From: a candidate division WOR-3 bacterium
GTDB lineage: Bacteria > Hydrothermota > UBA3073
Length of the DNA: 64,000 bases
Direction: 5' to 3'
NCBI GenBank assembly: GCA_030606335.1
Contig: JAUWGP010000013.1
Coordinates: forward strand, 2,346-66,345
Part shown: positions 3,147 to 45,507 of the stretch, in pieces
How the letters are laid out: the number at the start of each line of letters is the position of its first letter
Position numbering within the stretch: position 1 is the first letter of the stretch
Made by a program: the position numbers and the translations under genes
Notes under the pieces: model-generated
The model's database searches: none
What the model was told of the DNA's origin: nothing
Seen by the model: only the letters and a program-made list of their open reading frames with translations

Positions 3147-3339
3147 GAGATTGCTTCGTCGTCCGTCAATCGACGGACTCCTCGCAATGACATAAAAGGA
3201 TGTGTCATTGCGAGCGACTGAAAGGAGCGTGGTAATCTCATCCAAAGCAACTGTCATTGCGAGCGACTGAAAGGAGCGTGGCAATCTCATCCAAGGGACT
3301 TGTCATTGCGAGCGACTAACAGGAGCGTGGCAATCTCAT
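3147..3339. repeat. Tandem cluster of REP-like hairpin repeats (family 'GAGATTGC...CTCGCAATGAC' / 'GTCATTGCGAGCGACTGAAAGGAGCGTGGCAATCTC'); one plus three ~50-bp units
   Basis: Direct reading: three near-identical units at 3205-3339 preceded by a variant unit at 3147-3190; imperfect palindromes (attgc...gcaat). Confidence 0.8.
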
Positions 3340-6571: not shown

Positions 6572-6659
6572 GGAGATGCGATTGCTTCGCTAACGCTCGC
6601 AATGACATAGAGCGGTGTCTGTCTTTGCGAGTCCGTCGTTTGACGGATGTGGCAATCTC
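6572..6659. repeat. REP-like hairpin repeat pair (GCGATTGCTTCGCTAACGCTCGCAATGAC ... GCGAGTCCGTCGTTTGACGGATGTGGCAATCTC)
   Basis: Same family as 3147-3339, 26959-27008, 27310-27376 and 45450-45507. Confidence 0.7.
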
Positions 6660-20126: not shown

Positions 20127-23100
20127 ATGCACATTACTGCTCATATTATTTCTCATACACATTGGGATCGTGAATGGTTTTTGTCCAGTAAATATACTGA
20201 TGAGTGGTTAATTCCTTTTTTCAACTCCTTATTCAATTTGATGAATAAATATCCTGATTATTGTTTTGTTTTAGATGGTCAAACTTTAATGATAGAGGAT
20301 TATTTGCATCAACTTTCAAAAATAGAAAGAATAGAAGCGAAAAAGAAATTTAAAAAATATGTCAGCCAATCGAGATTGCTAATTGGTCCTTACTATCTTC
20401 AGCCAGATTGGCGTTTGGTTAGCGGAGAATCTTTGCTGCGTAATATCATTATTGGCCATCAAATGGCCCAAAAATTAGGCAAAGTAATGAAGGTTGGGTG
20501 GCTATTGGATAATTTTGGTCAAATTTCCCAGGCTCCACAAATACATAAAGGGTTTGATATTGATGGAGTATATTTATGGCGAGGAATAGAAGTAACTCCT
20601 GGGCATTTTCACTCAGAGTATTTCTGGAAATCGCCTGATGGCTCACAAGTTACATCTGTTTATTTGCTGAATAGTTACAGGAATGCAATGCGCTTGGCAG
20701 AGAACTCTGATATCGCTCAGGAAAGGATCGTGAGCGAAGTTAGAAAATTATCCTGCTTTGCTACAACGAATAACATTTTACTTATGAATGGTTACGATCA
20801 GGAAATGGTGCCTGATGATGTTCTTCCATTAATAAGAAAGGTCAATGCAGACCTAAAAGACATTCAGCTACTTCAAACGACTCCTGAGAAATACTTAAAA
20901 GCTGTTCAGAAAGAGAATCCATCACTGCTAACTTTGAAAGGTACTCAAAACAATGGTCGGTACATCTCTGTATTTCCTGGAACACTTTCTACCCGTATGT
21001 ATCTCAAACAAATGAATAGACAATGTGAAAATCAACTGATAAAATGGGCGGAACCGATGTCCAGTTTATTATGGGCTTTTGGGGGTGAATATCCCCAACA
21101 ATTAATGGATTTTGCCTGGAAAAAGTTACTCAAAAATCATCCACACGATAATATTTGTGGAGTCAGTATTGACGATGTACATAGTGATATGGAAGTTAGA
21201 TTCAAACAGAGTCAAGAAGCGTCTGAGAAAATAATCAGTCAGACCTTAAAAACAATAAGCGACAATATTGATACTCAACACGACCAAAATTTAGTGGTTT
21301 TCAACCCTTCCCCCTGGAAAAGAGACGGGATAGTTAAAGTTGCTCTGAAAGTCAAAGATGATTTTTCTATCTGTGAGGTTGATACAAACAAGCCCATCCC
21401 ATATCAAATTGGCAGGAAAAGAGGAGAATTGACAGATGTTTACTTTTTTGTCAGTTCAGTTCCAGCGGTAGGCTATAAAACTTATTATATTCATAATGAA
21501 CAAGTCGATGTGTCTTTGCCGGGTATGGTGACGGTTTCTCTCAAAGATTATACAATGGAGAATAAACATATTAAAGTTAAGATTAAGAGCAATGGCAGCA
21601 TAATTGTTATTGATAAAGAAACAGGGTGCCAGTATAACGCAATCGCCTATTTTGAAGATGGAGCAGATAGTGGCGATACCTACAACTATTCATTTCCCCC
21701 TGAAGATACAATAATTACAAGTTTAGATTCCAAAGCCCGTATCACTTTGATTGAACAAGGGCCTTTAGTGGCAATGTTTAAAATAGAATTATCAATGGAT
21801 ATTCCCATAGCATTGGTTAAAAACCGAAAACGACGCAGTAAGATAACTCGCCGATTCCCCATCGTTACTTTCGTTAGCCTGGAAGTTAATTCACCGCGCG
21901 TGGATTTTCATACCCAACTAAAAAATGTGACCAAAGACCATAGATTAAGGGTAGTATTTCCGACTTTTGCAGGCGCAAAGTATTCCACCTCTGACCGACC
22001 ATTTGATGTTGTTGATACTCCCATTTCATTTTCCCCTTATCCAACACGACTTCCATATAATATTAAGCAAATAATGATTGGAGCACGTGAATCTGTACCA
22101 GTGACCACGCTACCATTGAATTCTTTTGTTTATCTTAACGATGAAAACAGAGGAGCAGGGCTTATCACTCTGGGTCTATCCGAATACGAAATTATTGAAG
22201 AACACAAAATTGCTCTTGCTTTATTCCGGGCAATAGGATGGCTGGCAAGGGATGATTTGCTTACTAGAGTGGGCGATGCTGGTCCCATGATATTTACTCC
22301 AGAAGCTCAATGTTTGCGATATTGCGATTTTCATTATTCTTTTATGCCCTACCATGACAAGACAATCGGTTTTTTGTTTAAGCAGGCAGAACTATTTAAC
22401 ACGAGTTTAAAAGCAGTGTCCACTGGCAAACATAGAGGTATGCTGGAAAATAAAAAGGGTCTGCTCTGGTCAGAATCGGACAATGATGGTTTGGTTATCA
22501 GTGCAGTAAAAAAGGGAGAAAATGAAGACAAACTGATCATCAGACTCTTTAATCCGTTAGAGCAGGAAGTAAGAGGTGTATTGACATTTAATGGGAAAAT
22601 TCAACATGCAGAAATAAACAATCTGAATGAAGAGCTTAAAGATGAATCATCAACAAAGGATAATTCTATTCTTCTCAAAGTACCAGCCAAAAAGATAGTA
22701 ACTTTAGGAATAAAATTTAAAAAAAGAAACCTTATTAAAAATATATCTTCTTCTAAAACAAAAATACTTTTCCCTCTTGCTTTTGAAAAAGAAAATTTTT
22801 TAGATGTAGATATACCCGATATTGTGACAAAAGATGATATAAAACAAGAACAACAAAGAGCTGATCAATTACAAAAAAAGCTTTCTTGCAGTCAAAATAA
22901 GATGGAGAAAATAGAGAAAGAAATATTATCAAATAAAAACAAACGAAGATTAGCAAAATTTAAAAGGGAAAAAATCAGGATATGGGGGGTTGTAACGGCT
23001 CTTGCCAGAGCTGAATTAGAAGCGAGACTGTCACTGATACTTACTCAAAAAAAATATATTGAGTTATATGAATCTGATTATCAAAAGAAGAATGGCAAAA

Positions 23101-23222
23101 TGAATAAGTACGACTCAATGTTGAGAGAAATTGGTCTTATGCTTAATACTGCACGGATAACTAAAAGGGTCTCTGAATATTTAATACAAATTGATTCTCT
23201 TATTAACCAGGTGAAATCATAG
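20127..23222 (+). CDS. GH38 alpha-mannosidase with ~250-aa K/E-rich coiled-coil C-terminal extension
   Basis: HTHWDREW N-terminal signature and downstream GH38 architecture; 1031 aa. Confidence 0.85.
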   Translation: MHITAHIISHTHWDREWFLSSKYTDEWLIPFFNSLFNLMNKYPDYCFVLDGQTLMIEDYLHQLSKIERIEAKKKFKKYVSQSRLLIGPYYLQPDWRLVSGESLLRNIIIGHQMAQKLGKVMKVGWLLDNFGQISQAPQIHKGFDIDGVYLWRGIEVTPGHFHSEYFWKSPDGSQVTSVYLLNSYRNAMRLAENSDIAQERIVSEVRKLSCFATTNNILLMNGYDQEMVPDDVLPLIRKVNADLKDIQLLQTTPEKYLKAVQKENPSLLTLKGTQNNGRYISVFPGTLSTRMYLKQMNRQCENQLIKWAEPMSSLLWAFGGEYPQQLMDFAWKKLLKNHPHDNICGVSIDDVHSDMEVRFKQSQEASEKIISQTLKTISDNIDTQHDQNLVVFNPSPWKRDGIVKVALKVKDDFSICEVDTNKPIPYQIGRKRGELTDVYFFVSSVPAVGYKTYYIHNEQVDVSLPGMVTVSLKDYTMENKHIKVKIKSNGSIIVIDKETGCQYNAIAYFEDGADSGDTYNYSFPPEDTIITSLDSKARITLIEQGPLVAMFKIELSMDIPIALVKNRKRRSKITRRFPIVTFVSLEVNSPRVDFHTQLKNVTKDHRLRVVFPTFAGAKYSTSDRPFDVVDTPISFSPYPTRLPYNIKQIMIGARESVPVTTLPLNSFVYLNDENRGAGLITLGLSEYEIIEEHKIALALFRAIGWLARDDLLTRVGDAGPMIFTPEAQCLRYCDFHYSFMPYHDKTIGFLFKQAELFNTSLKAVSTGKHRGMLENKKGLLWSESDNDGLVISAVKKGENEDKLIIRLFNPLEQEVRGVLTFNGKIQHAEINNLNEELKDESSTKDNSILLKVPAKKIVTLGIKFKKRNLIKNISSSKTKILFPLAFEKENFLDVDIPDIVTKDDIKQEQQRADQLQKKLSCSQNKMEKIEKEILSNKNKRRLAKFKREKIRIWGVVTALARAELEARLSLILTQKKYIELYESDYQKKNGKMNKYDSMLREIGLMLNTARITKRVSEYLIQIDSLINQVKS

Positions 23223-25054: not shown

Positions 25055-26043
25055 TGACTTCAATAACAAAACGGTTACTTGTCTCTTTTGTTACTATCTT
25101 TCTGGCGCTAAGTATTACTTTTTTCCTAACCAGAAAGATGCCAGGTGATATCTTTTACACAATGGCATTGGATAAGATGAGAACCGAGGGAATTCCTTTT
25201 GATGTAGCCTATGAACGGGTAATGGCTATTTATGGTATGGCTAGTGGTGAGCCCCTATACAAACAGTACTTCGCTTATCTTGGAAACACTATAAGAGGTC
25301 GTCTGGGTACGTCGATCTACTATCACATCTCTGTTAACAAAATAATCGCAAAGGCTATTCCATGGACAGTTTTTGTCTGCTCTATCTCCATATTCCTCGG
25401 TTTTATTATCGGTTCTGCCCTGGGTACGGTAATAGCATGGAAACGAAAAACAATTTTAGATCCATTAGCATCTGCGTATGCTTCGATTACTGATGCTACC
25501 CCTTCCTATATAATTGCGACTATACTTTTAGTTATCTTTGCTGTAAATCTTAAATGGTTTCCGATAAAGGGTGCATACAGTGTTGATGTTACCCCGGGCT
25601 TTAATCTACCATTTATTTGGAATGCACTCTATCATGCCACTTTGCCTATCCTGGCTTATACAATACCGGGCATCGGTGGTTGGATACTTACTATGAAAGC
25701 GAGTGCAATTAGTGTATTAGGTGAAGATTATGTATCAGCAGCCAAAGCCCGGGGCTTAAAGGAGAGAAGAATTGCTATATCCTATGTAGGTAGAAATGCC
25801 ATTTTGGCGCCTTTTACAAGTTTGGCAATTGTATTTGGTAGTATGTTAGGTGGTGCAACCCTTATAGAGAGTGTTTTTGCCTATCCTGGTATGGGCTTCT
25901 TTTTTGGAAAGGCTATAGGTCTTAGGGATTATCCGTTAATGCAAGGGCTATTCCTACTGACCATTGGCGGTGTAATATTGGCAACCTTACTTGCAGATTT
26001 TCTTTATGCTGCAATAGATCCAAGAGTTAGGAAAGGTGGATGA
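25051..26043 (+). CDS. ABC transporter permease (OppB/DppB-like)
   Basis: Six TM segments and an EAA-like loop (YVSAAKARGLKE). Confidence 0.85.
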   Translation: MMTSITKRLLVSFVTIFLALSITFFLTRKMPGDIFYTMALDKMRTEGIPFDVAYERVMAIYGMASGEPLYKQYFAYLGNTIRGRLGTSIYYHISVNKIIAKAIPWTVFVCSISIFLGFIIGSALGTVIAWKRKTILDPLASAYASITDATPSYIIATILLVIFAVNLKWFPIKGAYSVDVTPGFNLPFIWNALYHATLPILAYTIPGIGGWILTMKASAISVLGEDYVSAAKARGLKERRIAISYVGRNAILAPFTSLAIVFGSMLGGATLIESVFAYPGMGFFFGKAIGLRDYPLMQGLFLLTIGGVILATLLADFLYAAIDPRVRKGG

Positions 26044-26942
26044 AATTGATATTTGGTGAAACATCAAATAAATTAGGCAAGGCGTATAAAGACATAATAG
26101 GTTTCTTACGCTTCTTCAGGGGTAATAAAAGGGCTTTATTCGGTTTGTTCTTAACTCTATTGTTTATACTGATGGCTGTAATAGGACCTTATGTCGTTCA
26201 CCTTGATCTTACAACCAGATACTCAGAAAGATTTCAGCCTCCCTCAATTAAGCACATATTAGGCACCGACTTTGTAGGGCGAGACATTTTTGCTCAAATA
26301 GTTCATGGTGCCCGTGATGTTATAGCAGTAGCATTTCTTGCTGCCTTATTTGCTGTAGCCATAGGAGTGGTAATGGGTGGTTTTGCCGGGTTTGTTAGTG
26401 GTTGGGTAGATATGGTTTTGACAAGGATAATAGATGTTCTTTTGGTTATACCCTCTTTCCCGATAATGATGGTGTTTGCTGCATCTTTTAGGGTTAGAGA
26501 TCCTATAAGTATCAGTTTCATTCTTGCTATCTGGATGTGGGCTGGTCTGGCTCGAGCAATAAGGGCTCAGATATTATCTTTAAAAGAGAGGGAGTTCATA
26601 GAAGCTGCACAACTTTTAGGACTTGGTTCACGTCATATAGTTCTGAAAGAACTTATACCAAATTTGATGTCATATATAATTGTGAATTTCGTGAGGACGG
26701 CACGAGGAGCACTAACAGCAAGTGTTGGTCTAATGTTCCTGGGGATAATTCCATATTCACCCACAAACTGGGGAGTAATGATGAACTTAGCACTTTTTCA
26801 AACCGGTTCTATCTATGTACCTCGAGGATTATTTTATACACTATCTCCGATGTTATGCATAATACTCTTCCAATATGGCTTACTCTGTGTTGCCAGTGCA
26901 CTTGAAGAGGTTTTTAATCCAAGGCTCAGAGCATATGAATAG
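26040..26942 (+). CDS. ABC transporter permease (OppC/DppC-like)
   Basis: TM topology and EAAQLLGL motif. Confidence 0.85.
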   Translation: MKLIFGETSNKLGKAYKDIIGFLRFFRGNKRALFGLFLTLLFILMAVIGPYVVHLDLTTRYSERFQPPSIKHILGTDFVGRDIFAQIVHGARDVIAVAFLAALFAVAIGVVMGGFAGFVSGWVDMVLTRIIDVLLVIPSFPIMMVFAASFRVRDPISISFILAIWMWAGLARAIRAQILSLKEREFIEAAQLLGLGSRHIVLKELIPNLMSYIIVNFVRTARGALTASVGLMFLGIIPYSPTNWGVMMNLALFQTGSIYVPRGLFYTLSPMLCIILFQYGLLCVASALEEVFNPRLRAYE

Positions 26943-26958
26943 TATGCTCATTAATGAT

Positions 26959-27376
26959 GTCATTGCGAGGAGTCCGTCGTACTTCTTGACGGACGACGAA
27001 GCAATCCCAAGAGTCAACATAAGTGAATAAGTATTACTACATTTATATAATGACCAATAAGAGGAACACTGTACTTTATACAGGCGTTACTAATGACTTA
27101 AAAATAAGAACTTGCCAACATAAAGAGAAATTAGTTGAAGGATTTACAAAGAAATACAAAATCACCAAACTTGTCTATTACGAAGTATTTGATAACATAA
27201 AAAATGCCATCTTAAGAGAGAAACAGATTAAGGGCGGTTCAAGACAGAATAAAGTCGAGTTAATCAACAGTATGAATTCCAAATGGAAGGATTTATATGA
27301 TGAGGTATGAGATTGCCACGGGCTTTGCCCTCGCAATGACCCTCTAGGTCGGATTGCTTTGCTTCGCTCGCAATGA
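26959..27376 (+). mobile_element. GIY-YIG minigene cassette bounded by REP-like hairpin repeats in inverted orientation (GTCATTGCGAGG ... GCTCGCAATGAC)
   Basis: Repeat copies 26959-27008 and 27310-27376 flank the 95-aa ORF; cassette lies between the oppC-like and oppD-like genes. Confidence 0.5.
27023..27310 (+). CDS. GIY-YIG nuclease-family protein (free-standing, 95 aa)
   Basis: YYIYIMTNKRNTVLYTGVTNDLKIRTCQHK matches GIY-x10-YIG...R...E/H pattern; GTG start, no clear RBS. Confidence 0.7.
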   Translation: MNKYYYIYIMTNKRNTVLYTGVTNDLKIRTCQHKEKLVEGFTKKYKITKLVYYEVFDNIKNAILREKQIKGGSRQNKVELINSMNSKWKDLYDEV

Positions 27377-27430
27377 CAGATGTTTTATCAATAATAAAGA
27401 GACTTTACAGTAAGGTGACAAAGTCAAGTT

Positions 27431-28408
27431 ATGGCTATACCTATTATAACTATAAAAGACCTTGTAGTTGAGTACAAGGTGAGGGAAGGAGCGATAAGGG
27501 TAGTTGATGACGTCTCACTTGAAGTACCCAAAGGTCGATTTACTGCACTCATTGGTGAGAGTGGGTGCGGTAAGACTACCATAGTAGAGGCTATTCTTAA
27601 CACTTTACCTCCCAATGGTTATATAAGGAAGGGTGAAATACTATTTAATGGGAAGAATTTACTCTCATTGAAAGAGGAAGAGCAAAGGCGGTTTAGATGG
27701 AAAAAGATTGCAACTGTCTTCCAGGCAGCACAGAATTCATTAAATCCAATAAAGGTGATAGGAGAGCAGATGGTAGAGACAATTTTAGATCATGAGAGTG
27801 TATCTAAAAAAGAAGCACTAAAGAAATCTTCTAATCTACTTGAACTTGTTGGATTGGAACCCTCTCGTGTTGTTAATTCTTATCCGCATGAGATAAGCGG
27901 TGGTATGAAGCAGAAGGTTATTATCGCCACGAGCCTACTACTCGATCCAGAGATGCTTATTCTGGATGAGCCCACAACTGCTTTAGATCTGATAACTCAA
28001 TTCTATCTCCTGGAAACCTTGGGGAAGCTCCATAAAAAATTAGGAATCACCATGATGATGGTGACCCATGATGTATCAAATGTTGCTCGTCATGCTGATA
28101 GGGTAGCAATAATGTACGCAGGCAAGATAGTGGAAGTAGGTGATATAGATGAGATATTCTACAATTCGCATCATCCCTATACAATTGGCCTTTTAAATTC
28201 AATCCCATCAATTATTGGTGACCTCAGCAAAAAGAAGCCCATACCCGGACTACCACCAAGCTTACTTGATCCACCTTCAGGGTGTAGGTTTCATCCAAGG
28301 TGCTCGTATACTGAGGAAGTATGTAAGAATATAGTGCCAGAACTCAAATCTATTGGGAATGAACATCTTACAGCGTGTCTTAGGTGGTCAGATATAACCA
28401 CAGAGTGA
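27431..28408 (+). CDS. ABC transporter ATP-binding protein (OppD-like)
   Basis: Walker A GESGCGKTT, signature ISGGMKQK, Walker B LILDEPTTALD, C-terminal Cys-rich oligopeptide-type tail. Confidence 0.85.
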   Translation: MAIPIITIKDLVVEYKVREGAIRVVDDVSLEVPKGRFTALIGESGCGKTTIVEAILNTLPPNGYIRKGEILFNGKNLLSLKEEEQRRFRWKKIATVFQAAQNSLNPIKVIGEQMVETILDHESVSKKEALKKSSNLLELVGLEPSRVVNSYPHEISGGMKQKVIIATSLLLDPEMLILDEPTTALDLITQFYLLETLGKLHKKLGITMMMVTHDVSNVARHADRVAIMYAGKIVEVGDIDEIFYNSHHPYTIGLLNSIPSIIGDLSKKKPIPGLPPSLLDPPSGCRFHPRCSYTEEVCKNIVPELKSIGNEHLTACLRWSDITTE

Positions 28409-45449: not shown

Positions 45450-45507
45450 GGAGATTGCTTCGGGGATTGCTTTGGCTTCGCCTCGCAATGACTCCCCTCG
45501 TAATGAC
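45450..45507. repeat. REP-like hairpin repeat (GGAGATTGCTTCGGGGATTGCTTTGGCTTCGCCTCGCAATGAC...)
   Basis: Same family as the 3147-3339 cluster. Confidence 0.65.

Follow-up and report, generated by a model that had tools for sequence, protein, structure and literature searches.

The small gene lodged between oppC and oppD in an uncultured WOR-3 bacterium most likely encodes a nuclease of the Ssn family, i.e., the cd10448 group of Chenal et al. (2025, Nat Commun 16:2388, PMC11893778), accompanied by its cognate hairpin repeats; judging by sequence comparison, we put the probability of this assignment at about 85%. The gene/hairpin system found here was published in 2025 (PMC11893778), so the locus opens no new category. 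An earlier note on this DNA had proposed a GIY-YIG counterpart to the REP/RAYT associations, an idea that is right, being supported by the SsnA homology and by the association with hairpins, but not new, as the likeness of Ssn and its repeats (NTS/SRM) to the IS200/IS605 and REP systems had already been drawn by the Ssn authors (PMC11893778). What is new at the locus is modest: a hairpin variant missed by the published search string, a reversed orientation of the repeats, the usual co-orientation of the gene with its neighbors, the turnover of hairpin interiors, and a near-identical contig that lacks the cassette.

The nuclease gene, its host operon and the hairpins

The window, i.e., the whole 64-kb stretch of DNA analyzed, contains a five-gene Opp-type operon coding for a solute-binding protein, two permeases and two ATPases. 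The nuclease ORF lies inside it, in the oppC-oppD spacer and on the strand common to both neighbors (Table 1). The spacer measures 488 nt; the earlier note had located the gap correctly, between a permease and an ATPase gene, and had given its size as 490 bp. The GTG start codon is immediately 3' of an in-frame TAA. The GIY-YIG domain (PF01541) covers residues 4 to 77 of the 95 (E 6e-15), without any other Pfam domain, which, together with the same-strand oppC and oppD genes, confirms the claim of a GIY-YIG ORF within the opp operon. An HUH Y1 transposase (Pfam Y1_Tnp) was considered and discarded, GIY-YIG being the only Pfam match. No matches were obtained for the ORF in NCBIfam, PADLOC or PHROGs, the scan of viral contigs gave no close relatives of the protein, and no second GIY-YIG gene was found within the 64-kb window. 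The GC content of the ORF is 0.30, versus 0.385 for the whole window. Directly 5' of the operon there is a GH38 alpha-mannosidase gene (20127-23222), an adjacency which suggests a possible role of the transporter in the uptake of substrates linked to this enzyme, either peptides or compounds derived from glycans.

Table 1. Location of the cassette, its neighboring genes and the gene-less hairpins in the window
Feature	Positions	Strand or orientation	Basis and remarks
OppC-type ABC permease, upstream neighbor	26040..26942	+	Pfam BPD_transp_1, OppC_N; 99% identical to candidate division WOR-3 MAG
Left hairpin unit (SRM-like): T-GTCATTGCGAG, interior stem TCCGTCG/TGACGGA, then GCAATCCC	26958..27008	+	ssDNA fold -8.9 kcal/mol, outer stem ATTGC/GCAAT
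Short leader AAGAGTCAACATAA, from hairpin tail to start codon	27009..27022	+	Similar leaders (aagagacaaca) in many homolog loci
ssn-type gene, single-domain GIY-YIG nuclease, 95 aa, GTG start	27023..27310	+	PF01541; SsnA similarity
Right-proximal hairpin unit; tail GATTGC abuts TGA stop codon	27311..27340	-	Motif and unit search, fold
Right-distal hairpin unit; head is the right arm of the 12-nt terminal inverted repeat	27352..27378	-	Motif and unit search
OppD-type ABC ATPase, downstream neighbor	27431..28408	+	Pfam ABC_tran, oligo_HPY
Gene-less hairpin cluster	3149..3335	3149-3191 (-) head-to-head with direct units 3204-3237, 3253-3286, 3302-3335 (+)	Intergenic
Gene-less head-to-head doublet	6580..6657	6580-6606 (-), 6621-6657 (+)	Intergenic
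Nested hairpin: complete unit 45465-45492 within outer unit, head GTCATTACGAG, tail GCAATCTC	45452..45507	-	Intergenic

The gene is bracketed by a 12-nt terminal inverted repeat (TGTCATTGCGAG at 26958-26969 and CTCGCAATGACA at 27367-27378), complementary at 12 out of 12 positions, the left arm of which is the head of the left hairpin unit (26959-27006, +). An 11-nt head motif, GTCATTGCGAG, with up to one mismatch, is present in 11 copies in the window against 0.41 expected, a number reached by none of 100 shuffles. Defining a unit as a head, a variable interior and the tail GCAATC (family pattern TGTCATTGCGAG...GCAATC), we found ten units and a partial one, three at the cassette and seven elsewhere, every copy being intergenic. 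The inverted bracketing of the gene described in the earlier note stands, with three units (one to the left and two to the right) in place of two. Similarly, the cluster placed at 3147-3339 does contain four units, although one is inverted and three are direct, so they are not all in tandem. The two copies taken as solo turned out to be something else, a head-to-head doublet at 6572-6659 and one unit nested within another at 45450-45507. The gene-less pairs (3149-3237 and 6580-6657) are head-to-head, with 12 to 14 nt between the heads; in the mirror-image arrangement of the cassette, it is the tails that face each other, across the nuclease gene.

As single-stranded DNA, the units have a 5-bp outer stem (ATTGC/GCAAT) and a variable inner part, often with a stem of its own. 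Folding is modest in the window (z from +1.9 to -4.0) and many units fold weakly (median z of -0.25 against shuffles of the interior), so recognition may rest more on sequence than on structure. The hairpins are without convincing terminator tails, no Rfam families were detected anywhere in the window, and a literature search with the motif sequence returned chance primer matches only.

Ssn homology and generality of the gene/hairpin association

Ssn proteins are single-domain GIY-YIG nucleases of ca. 94 aa (CDD cd10448, GIY-YIG_unchar_3; PMC11893778). SsnA of Neisseria meningitidis (NMV_0044/NMB0047) binds a 28-nt hairpin repeat, the NTS (CGTCATTCCCGCGMAVGCGGGAATCYRG), solely as single-stranded DNA, and cleaves a few nucleotides upstream of it, on one strand only (PMC11893778). 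The three bases preceding the NTS palindrome are the most critical for cutting and the C following it is the most critical for binding, and cleavage is lost in the mutants Y6A, Y17A and E64A (PMC11893778). In various phyla, ssn genes are flanked by Ssn-related motifs (SRM), with flanking repeats reported for 71% of the genes and repeats on both sides for 42% (PMC11893778).

We compared the window protein with the 94-aa, NTS-flanked SsnA ortholog of Neisseria gonorrhoeae (not the assayed N. meningitidis protein) and found 45% identity over 89 residues (pairwise E 2e-30). A tblastn search against two N. gonorrhoeae chromosomes gave E 3e-20. Both E values are inside the published cutoff for homology to Neisseria SsnA (E < 1e-10; PMC11893778). 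Like the Ssn proteins, the ORF is a bare GIY-YIG domain of the same length within one residue, and its Y8, Y19 and E66 align with the catalytic Y6, Y17 and E64 of SsnA; these three residues, as well as R29, H33 and N85, are invariant in an alignment of 14 sequences. Also shared is the presence of oriented hairpins on both sides of the gene that are dispersed and clustered in intergenic DNA as well. The window units and the NTS have a common frame, (T/C)GTC-ATT...AAT-C, which can be extended by a final T/C. When the search was anchored only on ATTGCGAG...GCAAT (259 units, taken from the window plus 80 related loci), GTC directly preceded the anchor in 98% and C directly followed it in 97% of the cases, i.e., at the same positions that were found to be critical for cleavage and binding in Neisseria (PMC11893778). 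Incidentally, the N. gonorrhoeae records NZ_CP119140.1 and NZ_CP119142.1 are 2.17-Mb "plasmid" entries that are evidently chromosomes, and their ssnA ortholog is unannotated.

There are also clear differences. The stem of the window units is ATTGC/GCAAT with conserved unpaired GAG/CGAA, whereas the NTS has a 9-bp palindrome (ATTCCCGCG) within a 28-nt unit, and the interior of the window type is variable (21 to 76 nt) and sometimes nested, unlike that of the NTS. The heads point away from the gene in the window (+ gene -) and towards it in N. gonorrhoeae, where ssnA has a - unit nearest to it upstream and a + unit downstream. Again unlike the Neisseria case, the cassette is located within an operon, and its host belongs to an uncultured lineage of WOR-3. 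The published SRM search string, HGTCWYN(0-2)YYVSBRHN(0-5)WNVSBRGN(0-2)RNCYNB (PMC11893778), in our own implementation, gave 9 NTS matches in a 3.3-kb Neisseria control locus, none in the window, and matches in only 1 of 73 related loci (see below). The mismatch is in the stem, with GCGAG instead of YYVSB. The window hairpin is thus a variant outside the published definition and, as far as sequence goes, new relative to the string, the comparison being with the string itself. Extending the SRM pattern by TGTCATTGCGAG...CGAAGCAATCTC would take it in.

A metagenome scan provided 80 loci with homologs 62 to 81% identical, 78 of them with usable flanks, which represent 58 distinct flank contexts. 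Their taxonomic breadth was judged from a few source names (Dehalococcoidia and Aerophobetes) and from the GC content of the flanks, which ranges from 27 to 65%; the gene is always ca. 11 points lower, yet it tracks the host (r=0.80). We could evaluate 73 loci, those with 150 nt or more of sequence to either side of the gene; the head motif flanks the gene on both sides in 70 of them, and the arrangement is + gene - in 58 and Neisseria-like in 6. In a typical + gene - locus, one copy of the motif lies 49 nt 5' of the start codon and another directly adjoins the stop codon. The motif is 30-fold denser close to the gene, with 8.4 copies per kb up to 200 nt away versus 0.28 per kb at distances of more than 500 nt. 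The hairpin(+)-gene-hairpin(-) order is therefore repeated in dozens of unrelated genomic contexts, and the link between a GIY-YIG gene and a REP-like hairpin family that the earlier note had seen at a single locus holds well beyond it. Homologs flanked by the motif are also carried by an Aerophobetes MAG (43% GC) and by a genome of 5.2 Mb and 59% GC (GCA_041300525.1). In the Aerophobetes MAG (L120:8982-11217), the cassette is co-oriented and lies between genes with an S-methyltransferase domain and a pterin-binding domain that look like a split methionine-synthase pair. The variant hairpin was present in all 80 sampled loci; with such a large uncultured subfamily carrying a hairpin that the SRM string does not detect, the published shares of repeat-flanked genes (PMC11893778) are probably too low.

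These data bear on a very different interpretation, i.e., a classical homing endonuclease of the I-TevI/Seg type or a housekeeping UPF0213/YhbQ-type nuclease, with the repeats being unrelated REP-like terminators that happen to be nearby. It could draw on the Pfam GIY-YIG match itself, on the "excinuclease ABC subunit C" label that some database copies of the homolog bear, and on the sole PDB sequence match of the ORF, a weak one to the UPF0213 protein BH0048 (1ZG2, E 0.032, 18 bits), which is far exceeded by the match to SsnA. Homing GIY-YIG enzymes such as I-TevI and SegA-G are proteins of 200 to 270 aa, with a linker and a DNA-binding domain, that cut double-stranded DNA. The window ORF shares with them the GIY-YIG core and a free-standing gene seemingly inserted between host genes, but it is a 95-aa protein without a C-terminal DNA-binding module or a phage-family match, and the PADLOC and NCBIfam searches were equally empty. 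Flanking of 70 out of 73 homologs and the 30-fold enrichment near the gene exclude coincidence. We consider this interpretation very improbable. The length of the protein, its domain make-up and its degree of similarity to the respective families led us to discard a homing endonuclease and a UvrC fragment, and they make a UPF0213 protein unlikely.

Under the Ssn assignment, a mode of action can be proposed by analogy. In DNA made single stranded by replication, repair or uptake, each unit would fold via its ATTGC/GCAAT stem, and the nuclease would bind the folded unit, reading the C after the stem, and cut ca. 3 nt 5' of the TGTC head; the complementary strand of the unit would be no substrate. 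The predicted cuts would fall just outside the cassette and on opposite strands (ca. 26954-26957, top, and ca. 27379-27382, bottom), and the dispersed gene-less units of Table 1 would be further substrates. The gene itself is probably read through from the opp operon, its orientation being compatible with co-transcription of oppC-ssn-oppD. Both neighbors are co-oriented with the gene in 22 of 30 independent contexts (P of 2e-5 versus an expected share of 0.35, and of 0.008 versus 0.5), which would fit either a dependence on read-through or a replication-linked strand bias.

Cassette-free alleles and repeat turnover

The cassette is an accessory, polymorphic insertion of ca. 421 bp in the oppC-oppD spacer that only part of the population carries. 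Contig L122, a single-run automatic assembly, codes for exactly the OppD of the window and is 98.4% and 99.4% identical to it on the two sides, without any increase in divergence close to the junction. In this contig (L122:2300-2345), the stop codon of oppC is followed by 17 nt (GATGATAGTGGAGCTTT, with a GGAG ribosome-binding site) and then by the start of oppD, with no cassette. Two syntenic contigs with OppC 84 to 85% identical (L116 and L113) have oppC-oppD spacers of 118 and 284 nt, respectively, and neither a GIY-YIG gene nor the head motif in 8.5 to 8.9 kb; in more distant opp operons, the gap at the junction is 25 to 123 nt. The uninterrupted junction that the earlier note had suggested looking for among relatives thus exists, even within the same population.

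The details of the junction are less simple. The spacer of the window consists of 16 nt, the 421-nt cassette and 53 nt, and clean excision would join TATGCTCATTAATGAT directly to AGATGTTTTATC. Instead, L122 has there an unrelated 17-mer with no match in the 488-nt spacer of the window. We looked in L122 for a target-site duplication and for the flanks of the window joined together and found neither; GATG is present on both sides of the cassette and is too short to weigh as a duplication. As regards the insertion postulated by the earlier note, the cassette-free junctions in relatives bear it out, but we found no clean empty site with the inverted repeats as its borders. It should be noted that the allele with the cassette is common to the window and L111, which belongs to a lineage only 86% identical, so that a recent gain elsewhere is no more likely than loss or replacement in L122. 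L111 and L112 represent the same oppC-gene-oppD locus, with GIY-YIG proteins 90 to 93% identical to that of the window. In the genome-collection scan, a single close genome was retrieved, the WOR-3 MAG with the 99% identical OppC, and its contig ends in the left hairpin. Other elements were seen at the oppC-oppD junction, namely a 151-aa NUDIX gene (L126:1609-2388) and a different AT-rich inverted-repeat element (L113:4886-5169), and the junction therefore seems to be a recurrent landing place.

The repeats themselves show signs of rapid turnover. Among the orthologous loci of the window, L111 and L112, the heads and tails of the hairpins are invariant, and the interiors have been swapped or expanded by 24 to 42 nt (window 26959-27006 and 27311-27377 versus L111:1880-2010 and L112:1600-1700), all of this within DNA that is 86 to 98% identical. 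The left hairpin of L111 carries a whole nested unit. In L112 (L112:1300-1335), the start codon of the nuclease has changed from GTG to GTA and the only ATG is at codon 10, the use of which would drop the first catalytic tyrosine; some ssn copies may hence be decaying.

Mobile element or host function

Mobility of the cassette is plausible, and the pattern described above may reflect a selfish or mobile status. The REP/REPIN-RAYT and IS200/IS605 systems, which are based on HUH Y1 transposases acting on single-strand hairpins, offer a close parallel. In them, there is likewise a small gene between inverted copies of an extragenic palindrome, the palindrome is likewise dispersed as singlets, inverted doublets and clusters, and there are few copies of the gene and many of the repeat; moreover, as with IS200/IS605, relatives of the window enzyme act only on a folded single strand. 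The differences lie in the chemistry. HUH transposases form a covalent tyrosine intermediate, whereas the fold found here is GIY-YIG, which is hydrolytic.

The cassette could then be an autonomous mobile element, in which the nuclease would act as a "transposase" or homing enzyme and nick single-stranded DNA just beyond the two inverted repeats, leaving it to repair or recombination by the host to duplicate or relocate the cassette as well as the gene-less hairpins, in the manner of REPIN/RAYT or IS200 but with another fold. We regard this tentatively, as something well short of probable. The IS-like layout with a perfect terminal inverted repeat, the 58 distinct contexts among 78 loci, the spread of flank GC (27 to 65%) despite protein identities of 62 to 81%, the location within operons in two phyla, and the presence/absence polymorphism at 98 to 99% flank identity all speak for it, as do the differences in number, spacing and interiors of the hairpins between orthologous loci, including nested units. 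The mobility hypothesis for repeat-ssn cassettes has been raised by the Ssn authors too (PMC11893778). On the other hand, the L122 junction is not a clean empty site, its loss of the cassette is as likely as a gain elsewhere given the allele shared at 86% identity, no target-site duplication is evident, and no close relatives appeared in viral contigs. There is a single copy of the gene per 64 kb for 10 hairpin units, and its GC content tracks that of the host, which fits long residence better than frequent transfer. GIY-YIG enzymes are hydrolytic, with no known ability to rejoin DNA, which also counts against a mobile element, and no Ssn is known to transpose. As for the "selfish cassette" with a homing-endonuclease-like gene put forward in the earlier note, the REP-like pairing of gene and hairpin is sound and the cassette-free alleles favor it, but the missing empty site and target duplication do not, and "homing" is an imprecise term for a bare 95-aa domain whose relatives cut only single-stranded DNA.

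The same single gene copy with many dispersed intergenic repeats would also be expected of a domesticated host function, in which the nuclease would cut single-stranded DNA, be it incoming or exposed, wherever it carries the hairpins, and so modulate transformation or recombination, its position in the opp operon being incidental. This is the role that has experimental support in Neisseria, where modulation of transformation or recombination has been shown for N. meningitidis and a host-controlled restriction of single-stranded DNA has been proposed (PMC11893778). The stable retention of the cassette at the same site in lineages 86 to 99% identical and the partial adjustment of gene GC to that of the host point in the same direction. 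Nevertheless, the gene is dispensable in the population, as indicated by L122, its start codon has been lost in L112, and closely similar pairs of gene and repeat occur in a very wide range of hosts, which argues for horizontal spread. A host function of this kind seems to us a serious candidate, if somewhat below even odds.

It is conceivable, although we consider it rather unlikely, that hairpin-ssn-hairpin represents a class of mobile element with a hydrolytic GIY-YIG ssDNA nuclease in the place of the HUH transposase, that would spread across phyla and settle co-directionally in transcription units; the 17-nt junction of L122 and the nested or swapped interiors would be its footprints. In any case, with its polymorphism, interior turnover and co-orientation, the locus is natural material for the question of whether repeat-ssn-repeat cassettes move. 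Besides, each new pair of enzyme and hairpin is a candidate site-specific cutter of single-stranded DNA for the uses proposed by the Ssn authors (PMC11893778).

A group of 11 of the metagenomic loci (L032-L055) has a conserved ORF of ca. 200 aa (LKEPF...GLPGTWKTETTEE, P-loop-like) directly after the right hairpin. In this orthologous group, the loci are less alike upstream of the cassette, and the flanking hairpins vary in number and spacing from one locus to another.
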